Origin: Escherichia coli
GTDB taxonomy: Bacteria; Pseudomonadota; Gammaproteobacteria; Enterobacterales; Enterobacteriaceae
Assembly (NCBI RefSeq): GCF_013122565.1
Contig: NZ_CP053258.1
Length of the DNA stretch: 64,000 bases
Reading direction: 5' to 3' (one strand)
The notes beneath the pieces were generated by a model, which saw only the letters and a list, made by a program, of their open reading frames with translations, was not told where the DNA came from and searched no databases. The position numbers and the translations under genes are program-made. Positions 45,773-53,064 of the stretch are shown in pieces. Positions within the stretch are counted from its first letter, which is position 1. The number at the start of each line of letters is the position of its first letter.

Positions 45773-46969
45773 ATGCGTGGAGAATTTTATCAGCAGTTAA
45801 CCAACGATCTGGAAACCGCACGGGCGGAAGGGTTGTTTAAAGAAGAGCGCATTATTACGTCTGCGCAGCAAGCAGATATCACTGTGGCTGATGGAAGCCA
45901 CGTCATTAACTTTTGTGCCAACAACTATCTCGGGCTGGCGAATCATCCGGATCTGATTGCGGCGGCAAAGGCGGGAATGGATTCTCACGGTTTCGGCATG
46001 GCTTCGGTGCGTTTTATTTGCGGCACTCAGGACAGCCATAAAGAGCTTGAACAAAAACTGGCGGCTTTCCTGGGGATGGAAGATGCGATTCTCTACTCTT
46101 CCTGCTTTGATGCTAACGGTGGCCTGTTTGAAACGCTGCTGGGTGCGGAAGACGCCATTATCTCCGACGCACTGAACCACGCGTCTATTATTGATGGTGT
46201 GCGTCTGTGTAAAGCTAAACGCTATCGCTATGCCAACAACGATATGCAGGAGCTGGAAGCACGTCTGAAAGAAGCGCGTGAAGCCGGTGCACGTCATGTG
46301 CTGATTGCCACCGATGGTGTGTTCTCGATGGACGGCGTGATTGCCAACCTGAAGGGCGTTTGCGATCTGGCAGATAAATACGATGCCCTGGTGATGGTAG
46401 ACGACTCCCACGCGGTCGGTTTTGTCGGTGAAAATGGTCGTGGTTCCCATGAATACTGCGATGTGATGGGCCGGGTCGATATTATCACCGGTACGCTTGG
46501 TAAAGCGCTGGGCGGGGCTTCTGGTGGTTATACTGCGGCGCGCAAAGAAGTGGTTGAGTGGCTGCGCCAGCGTTCTCGTCCGTATCTGTTCTCCAACTCG
46601 CTGGCACCGGCGATTGTCGCCGCTTCCATCAAAGTGCTGGAGATGGTTGAAGCGGGTAGCGAGCTACGTGACCGCCTGTGGGCGAACGCGCGTCAGTTCC
46701 GTGAGCAGATGTCGGCGGCGGGCTTTACCCTGGCGGGGGCCGATCACGCCATTATTCCGGTCATGCTTGGCGATGCGGTCGTGGCGCAGAAATTTGCCCG
46801 TGAGCTGCAAAAAGAGGGCATTTACGTCACCGGTTTCTTCTATCCGGTCGTACCGAAAGGTCAGGCGCGTATTCGTACCCAGATGTCTGCGGCGCATACC
46901 CCTGAGCAAATTACGCGTGCAGTAGAAGCATTCATGCGTATTGGTAAACAACTGGGCGTTATCGCCTGA
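45773..46969 (+). CDS. kbl: 2-amino-3-ketobutyrate CoA ligase (glycine C-acetyltransferase)
   Basis: 398-aa PLP-dependent ORF; immediately upstream of tdh. Confidence 0.95.
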
Positions 46970-46978
46970 GGATGTGAA

Positions 46979-48004
46979 ATGAAAGCGTTATCCAAACTGA
47001 AAGCGGAAGAGGGCATCTGGATGACCGACGTTCCTGAGCCGGAACTCGGGCATAACGATCTGCTGATTAAAATCCGTAAAACAGCCATCTGCGGGACTGA
47101 CGTTCACATCTATAACTGGGATGAGTGGTCGCAAAAAACCATCCCGGTGCCGATGGTTGTCGGTCATGAATATGTCGGTGAAGTGGTAGGTATTGGTCAG
47201 GAAGTGAAAGGCTTCAAGATTGGCGATCGCGTTTCTGGCGAAGGCCATATCACCTGCGGTCACTGTCGCAACTGTCGTGGCGGTCGTACCCATCTGTGCC
47301 GCAACACGATCGGCGTCGGCGTTAACCGTCCGGGCTGCTTCGCCGAATATCTGGTGATCCCGGCGTTCAACGCCTTCAAAATCCTAGACAATATCTCCGA
47401 CGACCTGGCTTCCATTTTTGATCCCTTCGGTAACGCCGTGCATACCGCTCTGTCGTTCGATCTGGTTGGCGAGGATGTGCTGGTCTCTGGTGCAGGGCCG
47501 ATAGGTATTATGGCTGCGGCGGTGGCGAAACACGTTGGTGCACGCAACGTGGTGATCACGGATGTTAATGAATACCGCCTTGAGCTGGCGCGTAAAATGG
47601 GTATCACCCGTGCGGTTAACGTCGCCAAAGAAAATCTCAATGACGTGATGGCGGAGTTAGGCATGACCGAAGGCTTTGATGTCGGTCTGGAAATGTCCGG
47701 TGCGCCGCCAGCGTTTCGTACCATGCTCGACACCATGAACCACGGCGGTCGCATTGCGATGCTGGGTATTCCACCGTCTGATATGTCTATCGACTGGACC
47801 AAAGTGATCTTTAAAGGCTTGTTCATTAAAGGTATTTACGGTCGTGAGATGTTTGAAACCTGGTACAAGATGGCGGCGCTGATTCAGTCTGGCCTCGATC
47901 TCTCGCCGATCATTACCCATCGTTTCTCTATTGATGATTTCCAGAAGGGCTTTGACGCTATGCGTTCGGGCCAGTCCGGGAAAGTTATTCTGAGCTGGGA
48001 TTAA
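46979..48004 (+). CDS. tdh: L-threonine 3-dehydrogenase
   Basis: 341-aa zinc-type alcohol dehydrogenase-family ORF. Confidence 0.95.
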
Positions 48005-48011
48005 CACGAAC

Positions 48012-48038
48012 AAGGGCTGGTATTCCAGCCCTTTTATC
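48012..48038 (+). terminator. Rho-independent terminator after tdh
   Basis: gggctgg-tatt-ccagccc stem-loop followed by TTTTAT. Confidence 0.6.
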
Positions 48039-48242
48039 TGAGGATAATCCGTTAAATATGTAAAATCCTGTCAGTGTAATAAAGATATCGTAATTGCGCT
48101 GATCTCTTATATAGCTGCTCTCATTATCTCTCTACCCTGAAGTGACTCTCTCACCTGTAAAAATAATATCTCACAGGCTTAATAGTTTCTTAATACAAAG
48201 CCTGTAAAACGTCAGGATAACTTCAGAGGTCGTCGGTAATTT

Positions 48243-49277
48243 ATGATGAACAGCACCAATAAACTTAGTGTTATTATCCCGTTATATAATGCGGGCGATG
48301 ATTTCCGCACGTGTATGGAATCTTTAATTACGCAAACCTGGACTGCTCTGGAAATCATTATTATTAACGATGGTTCAACGGATAATTCTGTTGAAATAGC
48401 AAAGCATTACGCGGAAAACTATCCGCACGTTCGTTTGTTGCATCAGGCGAATGCTGGCGCATCGGTGGCGCGTAATCGTGGGATCGAGGTGGCGACGGGC
48501 AAATATGTCGCTTTTGTCGATGCTGACGATGAGGTCTATCCCACCATGTACGAAACGCTGATGACCATGGCGTTAGAGGACGACCTCGACGTGGCGCAGT
48601 GCAACGCTGACTGGTGTTTTCGTGAAACGGGAGAAACCTGGCAATCCATCCCCACCGATCGCCTTCGCTCAACCGGCGTCTTAACCGGCCCGGACTGGCT
48701 GCGGATGGGGCTTTCTTCGCGCCGTTGGACACACGTGGTCTGGATGGGGGTTTATCGCCGCGATGTTATTGTTAAAAATAACATTAAATTTATTGCCGGA
48801 TTACATCATCAGGATATTGTCTGGACAACAGAATTCATGTTTAACGCGCTGCGTGCGCGATATACCGAGCAATCATTATATAAATATTATCTGCATAATA
48901 CGTCAGTGAGTCGGTTGCATAGACAAGGGAATAAAAACCTTAATTATCAACGTCACTATATTAAGATTACCCGCCTGCTGGAGAAATTAAATCGAAATTA
49001 TGCCGACAAAATTACGATTTATCCGGAATTTCATCAGCAAATAACTTACGAAGCATTGCGTGTTTGCCATGCGGTGCGCAAAGAGCCGGATATTCTTACC
49101 CGCCAACGGATGATTGCCGAGATATTTACTTCCGGTATGTATAAGCGCCTGATTACCAATGTCCGCAGCGTGAAGGTGGGTTACCAGGCGTTACTGTGGT
49201 TTTTCCGCTTATGGCAATGGCGCGACAAAACGCGGTCGCACCATCGCATTACGCGTAGCGCCTTTAATTTGCGCTAG
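48243..49277 (+). CDS. waaH: GT2-family glycosyltransferase WaaH/YibD
   Basis: 344-aa ORF with N-terminal GT2 signature LSVIIPLYNAGDD...DADD. Confidence 0.8.
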   Translation: MMNSTNKLSVIIPLYNAGDDFRTCMESLITQTWTALEIIIINDGSTDNSVEIAKHYAENYPHVRLLHQANAGASVARNRGIEVATGKYVAFVDADDEVYPTMYETLMTMALEDDLDVAQCNADWCFRETGETWQSIPTDRLRSTGVLTGPDWLRMGLSSRRWTHVVWMGVYRRDVIVKNNIKFIAGLHHQDIVWTTEFMFNALRARYTEQSLYKYYLHNTSVSRLHRQGNKNLNYQRHYIKITRLLEKLNRNYADKITIYPEFHQQITYEALRVCHAVRKEPDILTRQRMIAEIFTSGMYKRLITNVRSVKVGYQALLWFFRLWQWRDKTRSHHRITRSAFNLR

Positions 49278-50223
49278 CGTTAAGTTTTGCCGCTTCGGGC
49301 TGCTTGCCCCAGCCTTGCCACTGATGCTGGAAGTAAACGATCAGCGTGCTCTGGCTGATGCTTTCGCTTAATACTTCAAAGAAGCGATTAGCATAAACAG
49401 GTTCTATCGGTTTCTTCGGTTTGCAGAGCTTCACGCCACGGAACGGATTACGCGGTGTGTCGGGCACAGTGTTTTTCGGCGGTGTAGACGTATCAACCTG
49501 CGGTTCATTCAGCAAGCTGCTGGCTTTCACCAGCGTAATGTCTGGTGGCAGGTTATAAACCATCTGTTGTAGCACGCGTACCGTTGAAGGGTGAGGATGA
49601 CCGATGGCAATGGTCGAACCGTTGCGACGCGCGAGGTCAATCGCGCGATTGAACTGCACACGGATGTCCGCTTCGTTCTGTGAATCGTCGAGGAACACCT
49701 TCCGTTTGATCACCTTCACGCCAGTGCCTTGTGCGGCGCGCATCGCCTGGGTATTACCGATGGTTACGCTGTCGAGGAAGTAAAGATTGTAACGCTCCAG
49801 CGCCTGCATCACTTTCTGCATACCAAACAGGTTAGAGGTCATCTTGCTGCCCATGTGGTTGTTGATCCCCACGGCATAGGGCACGTTATTGACCGCACTA
49901 CGAATAATGCGCTCAATTTCGTCGCTGCTCATCTCCGGGCGTAGCGTATTTTTCTCCAGCGGCTGTTTACTCAGTGGTGCCATCGGTAGATGAATCAACA
50001 CTTCGTGACCGCTGTTATGCGCTTTGGTCGCCATCTCTCTGGCGTGCGGTGAATCGGGTAATACAGCGACGGAGATAGCGGGAGGCATCGCCAGCACCTG
50101 GTTTTCGTTGTGCGGGCGATACCCAAAATCATCAATGACGATGGCAAGTTTGCCAGCAAGTACGGGGGAGGAGAGCGCCAACAGAGCGGCAAATGCAAGA
50201 ACGTTACGACGAAATGGAAACAA
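49264..50223 (-). CDS. yibQ: divergent polysaccharide deacetylase-family protein
   Basis: 319-aa ORF with signal peptide; 3' end overlaps the waaH 3' end by 14 bp (convergent). Confidence 0.8.
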   Translation of the reverse strand: MFPFRRNVLAFAALLALSSPVLAGKLAIVIDDFGYRPHNENQVLAMPPAISVAVLPDSPHAREMATKAHNSGHEVLIHLPMAPLSKQPLEKNTLRPEMSSDEIERIIRSAVNNVPYAVGINNHMGSKMTSNLFGMQKVMQALERYNLYFLDSVTIGNTQAMRAAQGTGVKVIKRKVFLDDSQNEADIRVQFNRAIDLARRNGSTIAIGHPHPSTVRVLQQMVYNLPPDITLVKASSLLNEPQVDTSTPPKNTVPDTPRNPFRGVKLCKPKKPIEPVYANRFFEVLSESISQSTLIVYFQHQWQGWGKQPEAAKLNASAN

Positions 50224-50226
50224 AAC

Positions 50227-51486
50227 TTATCTTCCCAACCACGGCTGTGGATTGACCGCCTGACCCTGGCGGCGAATTTCGAAATAGAGTGAAGGTCTGC
50301 CCTGACCACCACTGCTGCCCACCAGTGCAATTGGCTGGCCCGCGCGAACCTGCGAACCAACGCTCACCAGTGCGCTCTGATTATAGCCGTAAAGACTCAT
50401 GTCGCCTTTACCATGCTCAACCACCACCACCAGACCGTAGCCTTGCAGCCAGTCAGCCAGAATCACCCGACCGTCGGCAATCGCTTTAACTTCAGTACCT
50501 TCAGAGGCACCAATCACCATCCCTTTCCAGCGTAATTCACCCTGTAGCTGTTCGCCATAGCGATGCAGCGTCGGCCCGCGAACCGGCCAGAATGCCTGAC
50601 CACGCGGTGCGCCCAGACCACCGGTACGGGACATCAGCGATTTTTCGCTTTCAGTCGGTTTGTAGGTGGTGCCTTTACGCGTCGCTTCTTTCTGGCGGTC
50701 GCGAACCGCCTGGGCCTCACGTGCTTCTCGTTCTGCACGCGCTTTCGCCGCGGCTTCCGCACGGGCAATGCTGTTACGCAGACGGGATTCGTTGGCGCGC
50801 AGCTCGCTCAACTGTTGCTGACCTTGCTGGATGGAAGACTCCAGCCCTGCCAGCGTCTTTTTACGCTCGTTCAGCGCCTGAGTCAGTTTCGCCTGTTGGG
50901 CGCGCTGTTCGTATAACAGCGTTTGTTGCTCGCTCTGTTTCTCTTCCAGTTCGGCACGCTGCATAGCGACTTCTTCACGCGTTTGCTTCAACTGGGCGAT
51001 GGTTTCTTGTCGCGCCTGGTTGAGATAGCCGAAGTAAGCCTGCAATCGTTGACCGCGCTGGCTTTCTTCGCCGCTGAGAATCAGCTGAATACCGGTATGT
51101 TCACCCTGACGAAACGCGGCATCCAGTTGCGCGGCGAGGCTGCGTTCCTGGGAGGCTTTTTGCTGCTCCAGTTTCGCAATCGACGCATTCATCTCATCAA
51201 TCTGTTTATTCAGTTGATTGAGGGTGTTTTGCGTTTCGCGCAGCTTGCGGGTGGCTTCCGAGATCGCCTCTTCCTGCTTTTTCAGCTGAGCAAGCAGGCT
51301 TGCGCGTTGTTGCTGCTGTTGACGTACCGCGCGCTCTTTTGCGGCGATGTCAGCCTGAATAGATTTGAGTTGGTCACGCTCATCCGCGTGGGCGGAAAAG
51401 GCGCACAACAATACGCCAGCGCTAAGAACGCTGGCGTAGATGATGGGCCTGATTGCAAACCTGCGCGGTTTCACGGCCCGTGTCAT
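50227..51486 (-). CDS. envC: murein hydrolase activator EnvC (coiled-coil plus LytM domain)
   Basis: ATG at 51486 gives 419 aa; long Q/A/E/R-rich coiled-coil region, C-terminal peptidase M23-like domain. Confidence 0.9.
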   Translation of the reverse strand: MTRAVKPRRFAIRPIIYASVLSAGVLLCAFSAHADERDQLKSIQADIAAKERAVRQQQQQRASLLAQLKKQEEAISEATRKLRETQNTLNQLNKQIDEMNASIAKLEQQKASQERSLAAQLDAAFRQGEHTGIQLILSGEESQRGQRLQAYFGYLNQARQETIAQLKQTREEVAMQRAELEEKQSEQQTLLYEQRAQQAKLTQALNERKKTLAGLESSIQQGQQQLSELRANESRLRNSIARAEAAAKARAEREAREAQAVRDRQKEATRKGTTYKPTESEKSLMSRTGGLGAPRGQAFWPVRGPTLHRYGEQLQGELRWKGMVIGASEGTEVKAIADGRVILADWLQGYGLVVVVEHGKGDMSLYGYNQSALVSVGSQVRAGQPIALVGSSGGQGRPSLYFEIRRQGQAVNPQPWLGR

Positions 51487-51519
51487 GGTATTAATCGCCT
51501 TTCCCCTCATGGGGAGGGA

Positions 51520-53064
51520 TTATTCCACGATGAACAGCGGCTTACCAGTCATCTCTTGCGGGATTTCCATACCCATCAGCGACAACATGGTCGGCGCGAT
51601 GTCAGAAAGTTTGCCGCCTTCAACCGCTTTCACGTTCTTATCGCCAACGTAAATCAGCGGAACTGGCAGGTTGGTGTGCGCTGTGTGCGCCTGACCCGTT
51701 GCCGGATCGCGCATCTGCTCAGCGTTACCGTGGTCAGCGGTGATCAGCAGTTGTCCACCTACAGACTCAACCGCTTTCGCAACTTCATCCACGCAGTGAT
51801 CCAGCGCTTCAACGGCTTTAACTGCTGCTTCCATCACCCCGGTGTGACCTACCATGTCACCGTTCGGGTAGTTACAGATGATGGTGTCGTATTTGCCGCT
51901 CTTGATTGCCGCAACCAGTTTTTCGGTCAGCTCTGCGGAGCTCATTTCCGGTTGCAGATCGTAAGTTGCCACTTTCGGTGAGTTGATCAGAATGCGGTCT
52001 TCGCCTTGGAACGACTCTTCTACACCACCGTTAAAGAAGAAAGTGACGTGGGCATATTTTTCGGTTTCGGAAATACGCAGCTGAGTTTTGTCGTTTTTCG
52101 CCATCCACTCGCCGAAGGTGTTAACCAGGGAAGCTGGTGGGTAAGCAACCGCAGTTTTGATGTCTGCGGCGTATTCGGTCAGCATCACGAAATCCACGTT
52201 AACCACTTTCTTACGCGCGAAGCCGTCGAAATCAGCGTTCACGAAAGCACGAGTGATTTCACGCGCACGGTCAGCACGGAAGTTCATGAAAATCAGTACA
52301 TCGCCGTCTTCCATTGCCGCGTCTGGCTGACCTTCTGCACGAATAACGGTCGCTTTCACGAACTCGTCGTTTTCGTCGCGAGCATAAGCTGCCTGCAAAC
52401 CAGCAACGGCGGTATCGGCCTGGAACTCACCCTGCGCCAGAGTCAGCAGGTCATAAGCTTTTTCAACGCGATCCCAACGGTTATCGCGGTCCATGGCGTA
52501 GTAACGGCCAATGATAGACGCTACGCGGCCTTTGCCCAGCGCGGCAAATTTCTCTTCAAATTTTTTCAGCGAGGATTCAGCACTGCGCGGCGGAGTGTCG
52601 CGACCGTCAAGGAATGCGTGCAGGTAGATTTTTTCTGCGCCGCGTTCAGCTGCCAGTTCTACCATCGCCATGATGTGATCTTCGTGGCTGTGTACGCCGC
52701 CTGCGGACAGCAGACCCATAATGTGTACCGCTTTGCCCGCATTTTTCGCTTTATCTACCGCGCCAGTCAGCACCGGATTAGCAAAGAAAGCGCGATCTTT
52801 GATTTCAACGTCCAGACGAGTCAGGTCCTGATACACGATGCGGCCGGCACCCAGGTTAACGTGGCCTACTTCGGAGTTACCCATCTGACGGTCAGGCAGA
52901 CCGACTTCCAGACCGGAAGCGTCGATCAGGGTATGCGGACGATTGGCCCACAGTGCATCCATTACCGGGGTTTTAGCACTAAAAATGGCGTTATCCTGCT
53001 GTTCTTCGCGATAGCCATAGCCATCCAGAATCACCAGTACCATAGGTTTTTTAGAAACCGACAT
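51520..53064 (-). CDS. gpmM: 2,3-bisphosphoglycerate-independent phosphoglycerate mutase
   Basis: ATG at 53064 gives 514 aa starting [18 protein letters not shown]. Confidence 0.9.

Follow-up and report, generated by a model that had tools for sequence, protein, structure and literature searches.

A conserved 14-bp convergent overlap between waaH and yibQ of Escherichia coli, with a length probably set by the WaaH C-terminus

Among the adjacent genes of E. coli, 663 overlapping pairs have been counted, 75 of which are convergent (Huvet & Stumpf 2014, PMC4161906). Convergent overlapping pairs that are formed by stop-codon displacement consist of two bona fide genes sharing a short 3′ stretch, to which one partner supplies a low-constraint tail. 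The ends of transcripts that run into a convergent neighbour have been studied by DirectRNA-seq with and without bicyclomycin (Adams 2021, PMC7815308). The Rho termination regions listed in supplementary file 2 of that work include an "antisense" class, and dozens of convergent neighbours in this table display Rho-terminated antisense read-through. Bidirectional terminators constitute another described class (Ju et al. 2019, SEnd-seq; Wang et al., bioRxiv 10.1101/2022.10.23.513370). In this class a palindromic hairpin is present where the transcripts of a convergent pair overlap; the terminators are described as located between genes, independent of Rho and producing uniform 3′ ends.

We compared these systems with the waaH-yibQ gene pair, located in a stretch of 64,000 nucleotides of E. 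coli DNA (NCBI RefSeq assembly GCF_013122565.1, contig NZ_CP053258.1) that is referred to below as the window. In its essentials the pair does not differ from convergent overlapping pairs in general: two bona fide genes share a short 3′ stretch, one of them contributing a low-constraint tail. The detail specific to this pair is that the yibQ stop is antisense to a conserved [L/F/I]-N junction of WaaH, which would fix the overlap at 14 bp across genera. The orthologous position of K-12 is itself an entry of the antisense Rho class (3789384, + strand, antisense waaH), with bicyclomycin-sensitive read-through and no discrete terminator made of a hairpin and a U-tract. In the window strain Rho would presumably act as in K-12, a rut site being suggested by a mild C>G bias. 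With bidirectional terminators the locus shares the convergent arrangement and a palindromic hairpin at the transcript overlap; unlike them, its hairpins lie inside coding sequence and are not conserved, and in K-12 the read-through is Rho-sensitive and no sharp 3′ end is catalogued among the curated Term-seq ends.

The coding features of the junction are the following.

48243-49277, + strand: waaH (yibD), 344 aa, UDP-glucuronate:LPS(HepIII) glycosyltransferase (ORF reading, Pfam, RefSeq orthologue annotation)
49264-50223, - strand: yibQ (sddA), 319 aa, divergent polysaccharide (peptidoglycan denuded-strand) deacetylase with a TTG start (ORF reading, Pfam, RefSeq)
50227-51486, - strand: envC, directly upstream of yibQ and in one transcription unit with it (ORF reading, RefSeq)
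49264-49277, both strands: convergent overlap of waaH and yibQ, 14 bp, TTAATTTGCGCTAG (direct reading)

By direct reading, waaH ends with GCC TTT AAT TTG CGC TAG (A F N L R *), its TAG stop being located at 49275-49277, and yibQ ends with AAC GCT AGC GCA AAT TAA (N A S A N *), the TAA corresponding to the + strand TTA at 49264-49266. The shared TTAATTTGCGCTAG therefore encodes (F)NLR* of WaaH on the + strand and (A)SAN* of YibQ on the - strand. An earlier note on this DNA had claimed that waaH (+) and yibQ (-) overlap tail to tail by 14 bp. This is confirmed by the reading of the two gene ends, which share 49264-49277 and leave no intergenic space, and by the RefSeq annotation. The note had also considered that a corrected stop could remove the overlap; the overlap stands, and both stops are found at the same positions in 11 species belonging to seven genera. 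The waaH stop is embedded in a perfect 8-bp palindrome, CGCTAGCG (49272-49279), the CTAG of which is read on the yibQ strand as part of GCT AGC (Ala-Ser).

Pfam matches, orthologues and the biochemistry of YibQ/SddA indicate that both partners are true protein-coding genes on opposite strands. WaaH residues 9-137 correspond to Glycos_transf_2 (GT2, E=9e-39) and YibQ residues 28-238 to PF04748 (Polysacc_deac_2, E=2e-76), and more than 5400 genomes carry annotated orthologues of waaH and yibQ. An 801-nt junction query detected the locus in 5424 of the 5426 complete E. coli genomes, on the chromosome every time; about 15 of these 5424 genomes lacked full coverage of the query. The same 14-bp overlap is annotated in K-12 MG1655 (RefSeq: yibQ 3788101..3789060, + strand; waaH 3789047..3790081, - strand) and, identically, in two further complete E. 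coli strains. The overlap is thus already known as part of the E. coli reference annotation. When positions 48900-49700 were compared with the 5,426 complete genomes, the closest was 98.6% identical and none reached 99%, and therefore the lineage of the window appears to be poorly represented in the collection at this locus.

The spacing of the pair is not a statistical oddity. The 32 kb around the locus in K-12 contain four convergent pairs, with spacings of +11, +52, -14 and +31 nt, and the waaH-yibQ overlap is an instance of ordinary gene packing. At the other end of yibQ, envC and yibQ form one operon (bioRxiv 10.1101/2025.02.18.638797), and only 3 nt separate the envC stop (50227-50229) from the yibQ TTG start (50223-50221). 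Such close spacing on one strand would fit co-translation within the operon. The longest ORF at envC comprises 427 aa (start 51510), compared to 419 aa (1260 nt) in RefSeq, the alternative ATG being located further upstream.

To see how the junction varies we surveyed 80 Enterobacteriaceae yibQ loci, taking one genome per species and locating both stops at each locus. The counts given here cover the 31 species that contain an intact convergent waaH-type neighbour.

14-bp overlap, 11 species: E. coli, E. albertii, S. enterica diarizonae, four Citrobacter, a Leclercia, an Enterobacter, Silvania and Cedecea
4-bp overlap, 5 species: Kluyvera, Pseudescherichia and one other
abutting stops (0 bp), 10 species: the C. 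freundii group and two Kluyvera, with a waaH-like gene of ~66% identity
gap of 6-14 nt, 3 species: loci L077, L024 and L022
gap of 72-113 nt with a REP-like insert, 2 species: loci L076 and L059

A zero spacer (14, 4 or 0 bp) is therefore present in 26 of the 31 species. The seven genera in which the overlap measures 14 bp are Escherichia, Salmonella, Citrobacter, Leclercia, Enterobacter, Silvania and Cedecea, a distribution suggesting that it is old and vertically inherited. A 152-bp overlap initially scored for Superficieibacter electus (L024) was rejected as an artefact of tblastn extension, the true junction being a 10-nt gap. The two loci with a large gap belong to Pseudocitrobacter (L059 3934-4046 and L076 3883-3954), the only surveyed species with a sizeable spacer; a REP-like palindromic sequence (GCCGGATAAGGCGTAGCCGCATCCGGC and similar) separates their yibQ and waaH stops.

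Comparison of the two C-termini indicates what determines the length of 14 bp. The C-terminus of WaaH, A-[L/F/I]-N-L-x*, is well conserved, with 71% identity across genera over the last 40 aa, whereas identity over the last 11 aa of YibQ amounts to 22%. In 13 of 13 aligned sequences the yibQ stop (TAA, or TGA in Salmonella) lies opposite the WaaH codon junction xTy|AAy: its complement on the waaH strand consists of the second and third bases of the L/F/I codon followed by the first base of the Asn codon. Conservation in YibQ extends as far as the motif QWQGW, which precedes the stop by 14 codons. Beyond this motif the tail measures 12-14 aa in the 14-bp group, compared to 0-5 aa in most species whose yibQ does not face a waaH of the E. 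coli type, a few of these reaching ~12 aa. According to published work (bioRxiv 10.1101/2025.02.18.638797), residues 239-319 of YibQ form a disordered C-terminal region that Prc cleaves and that deacetylase activity does not require. As the tail is disordered and poorly conserved, the overlap can be regarded as a low-constraint tail that continues antisense to a constrained neighbour as far as the first stop. Judged from these alignments, the protein constraint on WaaH would fully explain the length of 14 bp, which would remain constant because of purifying selection on the WaaH C-terminus.

The yibQ gene is not tied to the presence of its neighbour. Many genera do not contain waaH at the position beside yibQ, and it has been deleted in two Citrobacter species, sp. 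Awk 4 (L009) and R56 (L011), with yibQ left intact. Divergence from the waaH-bearing relatives begins ~4 nt past the yibQ stop in these deletions, tdh follows ~119 nt further on, and yibQ retains its long tail of 14 aa and its stop despite the loss of waaH (L009 3950-4085, and L011). In E. coli WWCOL-256 (L003 2677-4000) waaH is interrupted by the IS4-like element ISVsa5; the last 96 nt of waaH remain and yibQ is intact. In Escherichia sp. MOD1-EC7003 (L006, 899-1478) the sequence that follows yibQ after ~217 nt resembles WaaH only in part (residues 97-224, 76% identity), and waaH may be degraded or replaced there. At the upstream side of waaH in the window, a 9-bp GC-rich hairpin, AAGGGCTGG-N4-CCAGCCCTT, is located at 48012-48033, 8 nt past the tdh stop. 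It was flagged by the terminator scan on the - strand only, is also present between yibQ and tdh in a waaH-less Citrobacter (L009 4063-4084), and is probably the tdh terminator.

Next to the question of length stands that of how transcripts end at a junction without a spacer. Two hairpins are predicted there.

49251-49280, both strands: HP1, imperfect palindrome ACGCGTAGCGC-N9-GCGCTAGCGT, predicted at ~-13 to -14 kcal/mol on either strand
49214-49247, - strand: HP2, 13-bp stem and 8-nt loop, inside waaH codons, 16 nt past the yibQ stop

Both were overlooked by the inverted-repeat finder because of bulges and G.U pairs. HP1 straddles the two stops: that of yibQ falls in the loop and that of waaH in the 3′ arm, whose core is the 8-bp palindrome mentioned above. 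The sequence after HP1 on the waaH strand is a weakly U-rich tail, UUAAGUUUUG, in the window and UUAAACUUCG in K-12, where a U-rich tail is absent. HP2 has a predicted energy of -23.0 kcal/mol in yibQ-sense RNA, compared to -16.8 kcal/mol in waaH-sense RNA; the yibQ-sense form is the stronger because of two G.U pairs, which become C.A mismatches on the other strand. In the yibQ direction HP2 is not followed by a U-run, the next sequence being CAUAAGCGGAAAAA.

A consensus scan for intrinsic terminators at the junction returned a weak 6-bp stem at 49340-49359 and nothing else. Together with folding of both strands, this indicates that neither direction contains a canonical intrinsic terminator, i.e. 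a GC-rich stem-loop and U-run past the stop. The hairpins themselves are not conserved: RNAalifold applied to 13 sequences with the same overlap gave a consensus energy of -8.26 kcal/mol, to which covariation contributed -0.05. In this comparison HP1 was not conserved beyond Escherichia, and only a 5-bp core (GCGAC/GTCGC) of HP2 was kept across genera, its 3′ arm lying in the invariant TCGCGCCA that encodes W-R-D-K of WaaH. Neither did Rfam give a match at E<=1 in 46500-52000, so that no known structured RNA or REP family was detected at the junction. The two junction hairpins of E. coli are fairly stable, and HP2, being stronger in yibQ-sense RNA, could be a lineage-specific 3′-end stabiliser or pause element, to which a cross-genus test would be blind.

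The situation is different in relatives in which waaH does not abut yibQ. In at least three genera of this kind, direct reading revealed a canonical hairpin plus T-run terminator directly 3′ of the yibQ stop. The one in Enterobacter asburiae is AAAAAGCCACC-TGTGA-AGGTGGCTTTTTT, and similar ones are present in Trabulsiella and in another Enterobacteriaceae genome. These terminators were flagged by our own script and missed by the consensus scan, and three were confirmed by direct reading. Those of E. asburiae and Trabulsiella guamensis are located at the same operon end as the one studied here, directly past the yibQ stop, and consist of a 9-12-bp GC-rich stem and a T-run; the window contains none, because the waaH coding sequence fills the space that such a terminator would occupy.

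The earlier note had held that the overlap leaves no room for independent terminators. As regards the lack of a spacer and of a canonical intrinsic terminator this is correct, but the conclusion fails because termination can occur inside the coding region of the partner. The published K-12 data support this. In the Adams 2021 table (PMC7815308) a Rho region is listed at 3789384, + strand, "antisense waaH", with a Rho score of 5.55 (p=1.8e-15) and upstream/downstream coverage of 106/28 without and 187/274 with bicyclomycin. The peak lies 324 nt beyond the yibQ stop, where the RNA is antisense to the 3′ third of waaH. Positions were converted with k = 3838324 - w, based on equal gene lengths, which gave the following features of the yibQ-sense RNA in the window.

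48900-48980 (~48940), - strand: approximate yibQ-sense Rho termination peak, transferred from K-12 3789384
49101-49240, - strand: modest C>G stretch in yibQ-sense RNA (C/G ~1.3-1.4), candidate Rho loading region

The first of these should be read as a region, since 800-nt windows were compared in Adams 2021, giving a low positional resolution, and since those data were obtained with K-12 in LB, another strain than that of the window. The C>G stretch, from 49240 to 49101, is past the yibQ stop and hence untranslated in yibQ-sense RNA; its bias is only modest. The suggestion of the earlier note that antisense 3′ UTRs arise here is thus supported for the yibQ direction, by the bicyclomycin-sensitive region of K-12. 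No discrete 3′ end is included for K-12 3788700-3789499, the interval containing HP1 and HP2, in the curated Term-seq 3′ ends (Adams 2021, PMC7815308), and the TERMITe supplements do not contain an entry for waaH or yibQ.

For the waaH direction the same table contains a Rho region at 3790042, - strand, "internal waaH", located 39 nt into the ORF (LB; Rho score 5.77; PMC7815308), which corresponds to window position ~48282. Without induction, waaH transcription thus seems to be attenuated or to stop early. Expression of waaH increases only under phosphate limitation in a PhoB-dependent, possibly indirect manner (bioRxiv 10.1101/2023.02.07.527549). Few polymerases would therefore reach the 3′ end of waaH in rich medium, and the mutual interference between the two genes that the earlier note had envisaged is probably minor or rare under these conditions.

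Our preferred explanation, to which we assign a probability of about three in four, is that this is an ordinary, vertically inherited convergent overlap, with a length set by constraint on WaaH and with transcripts that end via Rho inside the partner gene. According to this explanation waaH is packed end to end, without a spacer, against yibQ/sddA, which closes the envC-yibQ unit, and the yibQ frame runs via its poorly constrained, disordered tail into the antisense of waaH as far as the first in-frame stop. This stop, TAA or TGA, is the reverse complement of the WaaH [L/F/I]-N junction, and purifying selection on WaaH would hold the overlap at 14 bp. If the window strain behaves as K-12 does, yibQ-side transcripts would enter waaH in antisense and be ended by Rho a few hundred nt further on, so that their 3′ UTR would be antisense to waaH. 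On the waaH side, transcripts would be scarce in phosphate-replete cells and mostly terminated by Rho near their 5′ end, and once induced they would presumably end by Rho within yibQ, antisense to it.

Other explanations of the junction differ in how they account for the same observations. HP1 and HP2 might form an overlapping bidirectional terminator of the SEnd-seq class, at which the hairpin pauses RNA polymerase and head-on and trailing collisions release it. Such terminators exist in E. coli and are unlike canonical ones (bioRxiv 10.1101/2022.10.23.513370), HP1 is almost palindromic, with ~-14 kcal/mol on both strands and UUAAGUUUUG after it on the waaH strand of the window, and HP2 reaches -23 kcal/mol in yibQ-sense RNA. 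We consider this unlikely, as the published class is described as independent of Rho (bioRxiv 10.1101/2022.10.23.513370) whereas the yibQ-strand read-through is sensitive to bicyclomycin and drops ~324 nt downstream, and as no curated Term-seq 3′ end coincides with HP1 or HP2 in K-12, where moreover the U-rich tail of HP1 is missing. Across the genera that retain the 14-bp overlap the two hairpins are neither conserved nor covarying, and the collision model applies best to highly expressed pairs (bioRxiv 10.1101/2022.10.23.513370), while waaH is poorly expressed. That the overlap is simply an annotation artefact, with one stop misplaced or one ORF end left untranslated, could be argued from the position of YibQ 239-319 outside the Pfam domain and from its being unneeded for activity. 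This idea was ruled out by direct stop reading and by conservation, and we give it practically no weight: stops read from the sequence cannot be moved, both frames are open up to them in 11 species with a conserved WaaH C-terminus, QWQGW is just 14 codons upstream of the YibQ stop, and the full-length YibQ of 319 aa has been expressed and its C-terminal tail studied (bioRxiv 10.1101/2025.02.18.638797).

A further view is that the overlap is a selected regulatory device that couples modification of the LPS core to deacetylation of septal peptidoglycan through transcriptional interference or an RNA duplex, either because envC-yibQ read-through silences waaH in phosphate-replete cells or because induced waaH lowers the level of full-length yibQ mRNA. 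In favour of this view, the cell envelope is the target of both products, K-12 makes yibQ-sense RNA that covers the 3′ third of waaH in antisense, and the near-universal zero spacer (26/31 species) might have been selected for coupling the two genes, compaction alone being the other possibility. Against it, many genera do not have waaH here, and yibQ stays intact when waaH is naturally lost, as in the two Citrobacter deletions and the IS-disrupted E. coli; the 14-bp length is already accounted for by the constraint on the WaaH protein, and dozens of convergent neighbours show similar Rho-terminated antisense read-through (Adams 2021, PMC7815308). We infer that the overlap has no selected regulatory role, such a role being very unlikely. 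Rho-sensitive read-through, the absence of catalogued sharp 3′ ends, the lack of conserved structure and the independent losses of waaH disfavour both the bidirectional terminator and the regulatory device. A more speculative combination, which we regard as highly improbable, is that the zero-spacer junction and the Escherichia-specific HP1 and HP2 constitute a conditional collision or pause element that works reciprocally between waaH and envC-yibQ(sddA). Induction of waaH by phosphate starvation could then truncate or destabilise the 3′ end of the envC-yibQ(sddA) mRNA, and read-through from the latter could dampen waaH.

If this last possibility were true, glucuronylation of LPS would be linked to deacetylation of septal peptidoglycan. 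On the explanation that we prefer, an ordinary overlap with Rho-dependent transcript ends, the junction matters little beyond bookkeeping: it is annotated, it belongs to a common class, and its antisense 3′ UTR ending by Rho is already contained in the K-12 data. In practice, when yibQ/sddA or waaH is deleted or tagged at its C-terminus, the 14 bp that the two genes share have to be taken into account. The locus would also serve as a textbook case in two respects, as it illustrates how a conserved C-terminal motif can fix the stop of a convergent neighbour, and hence the length of the overlap, across genera, and how Rho can take over at the end of an operon that has lost its intrinsic terminator to an abutting gene.
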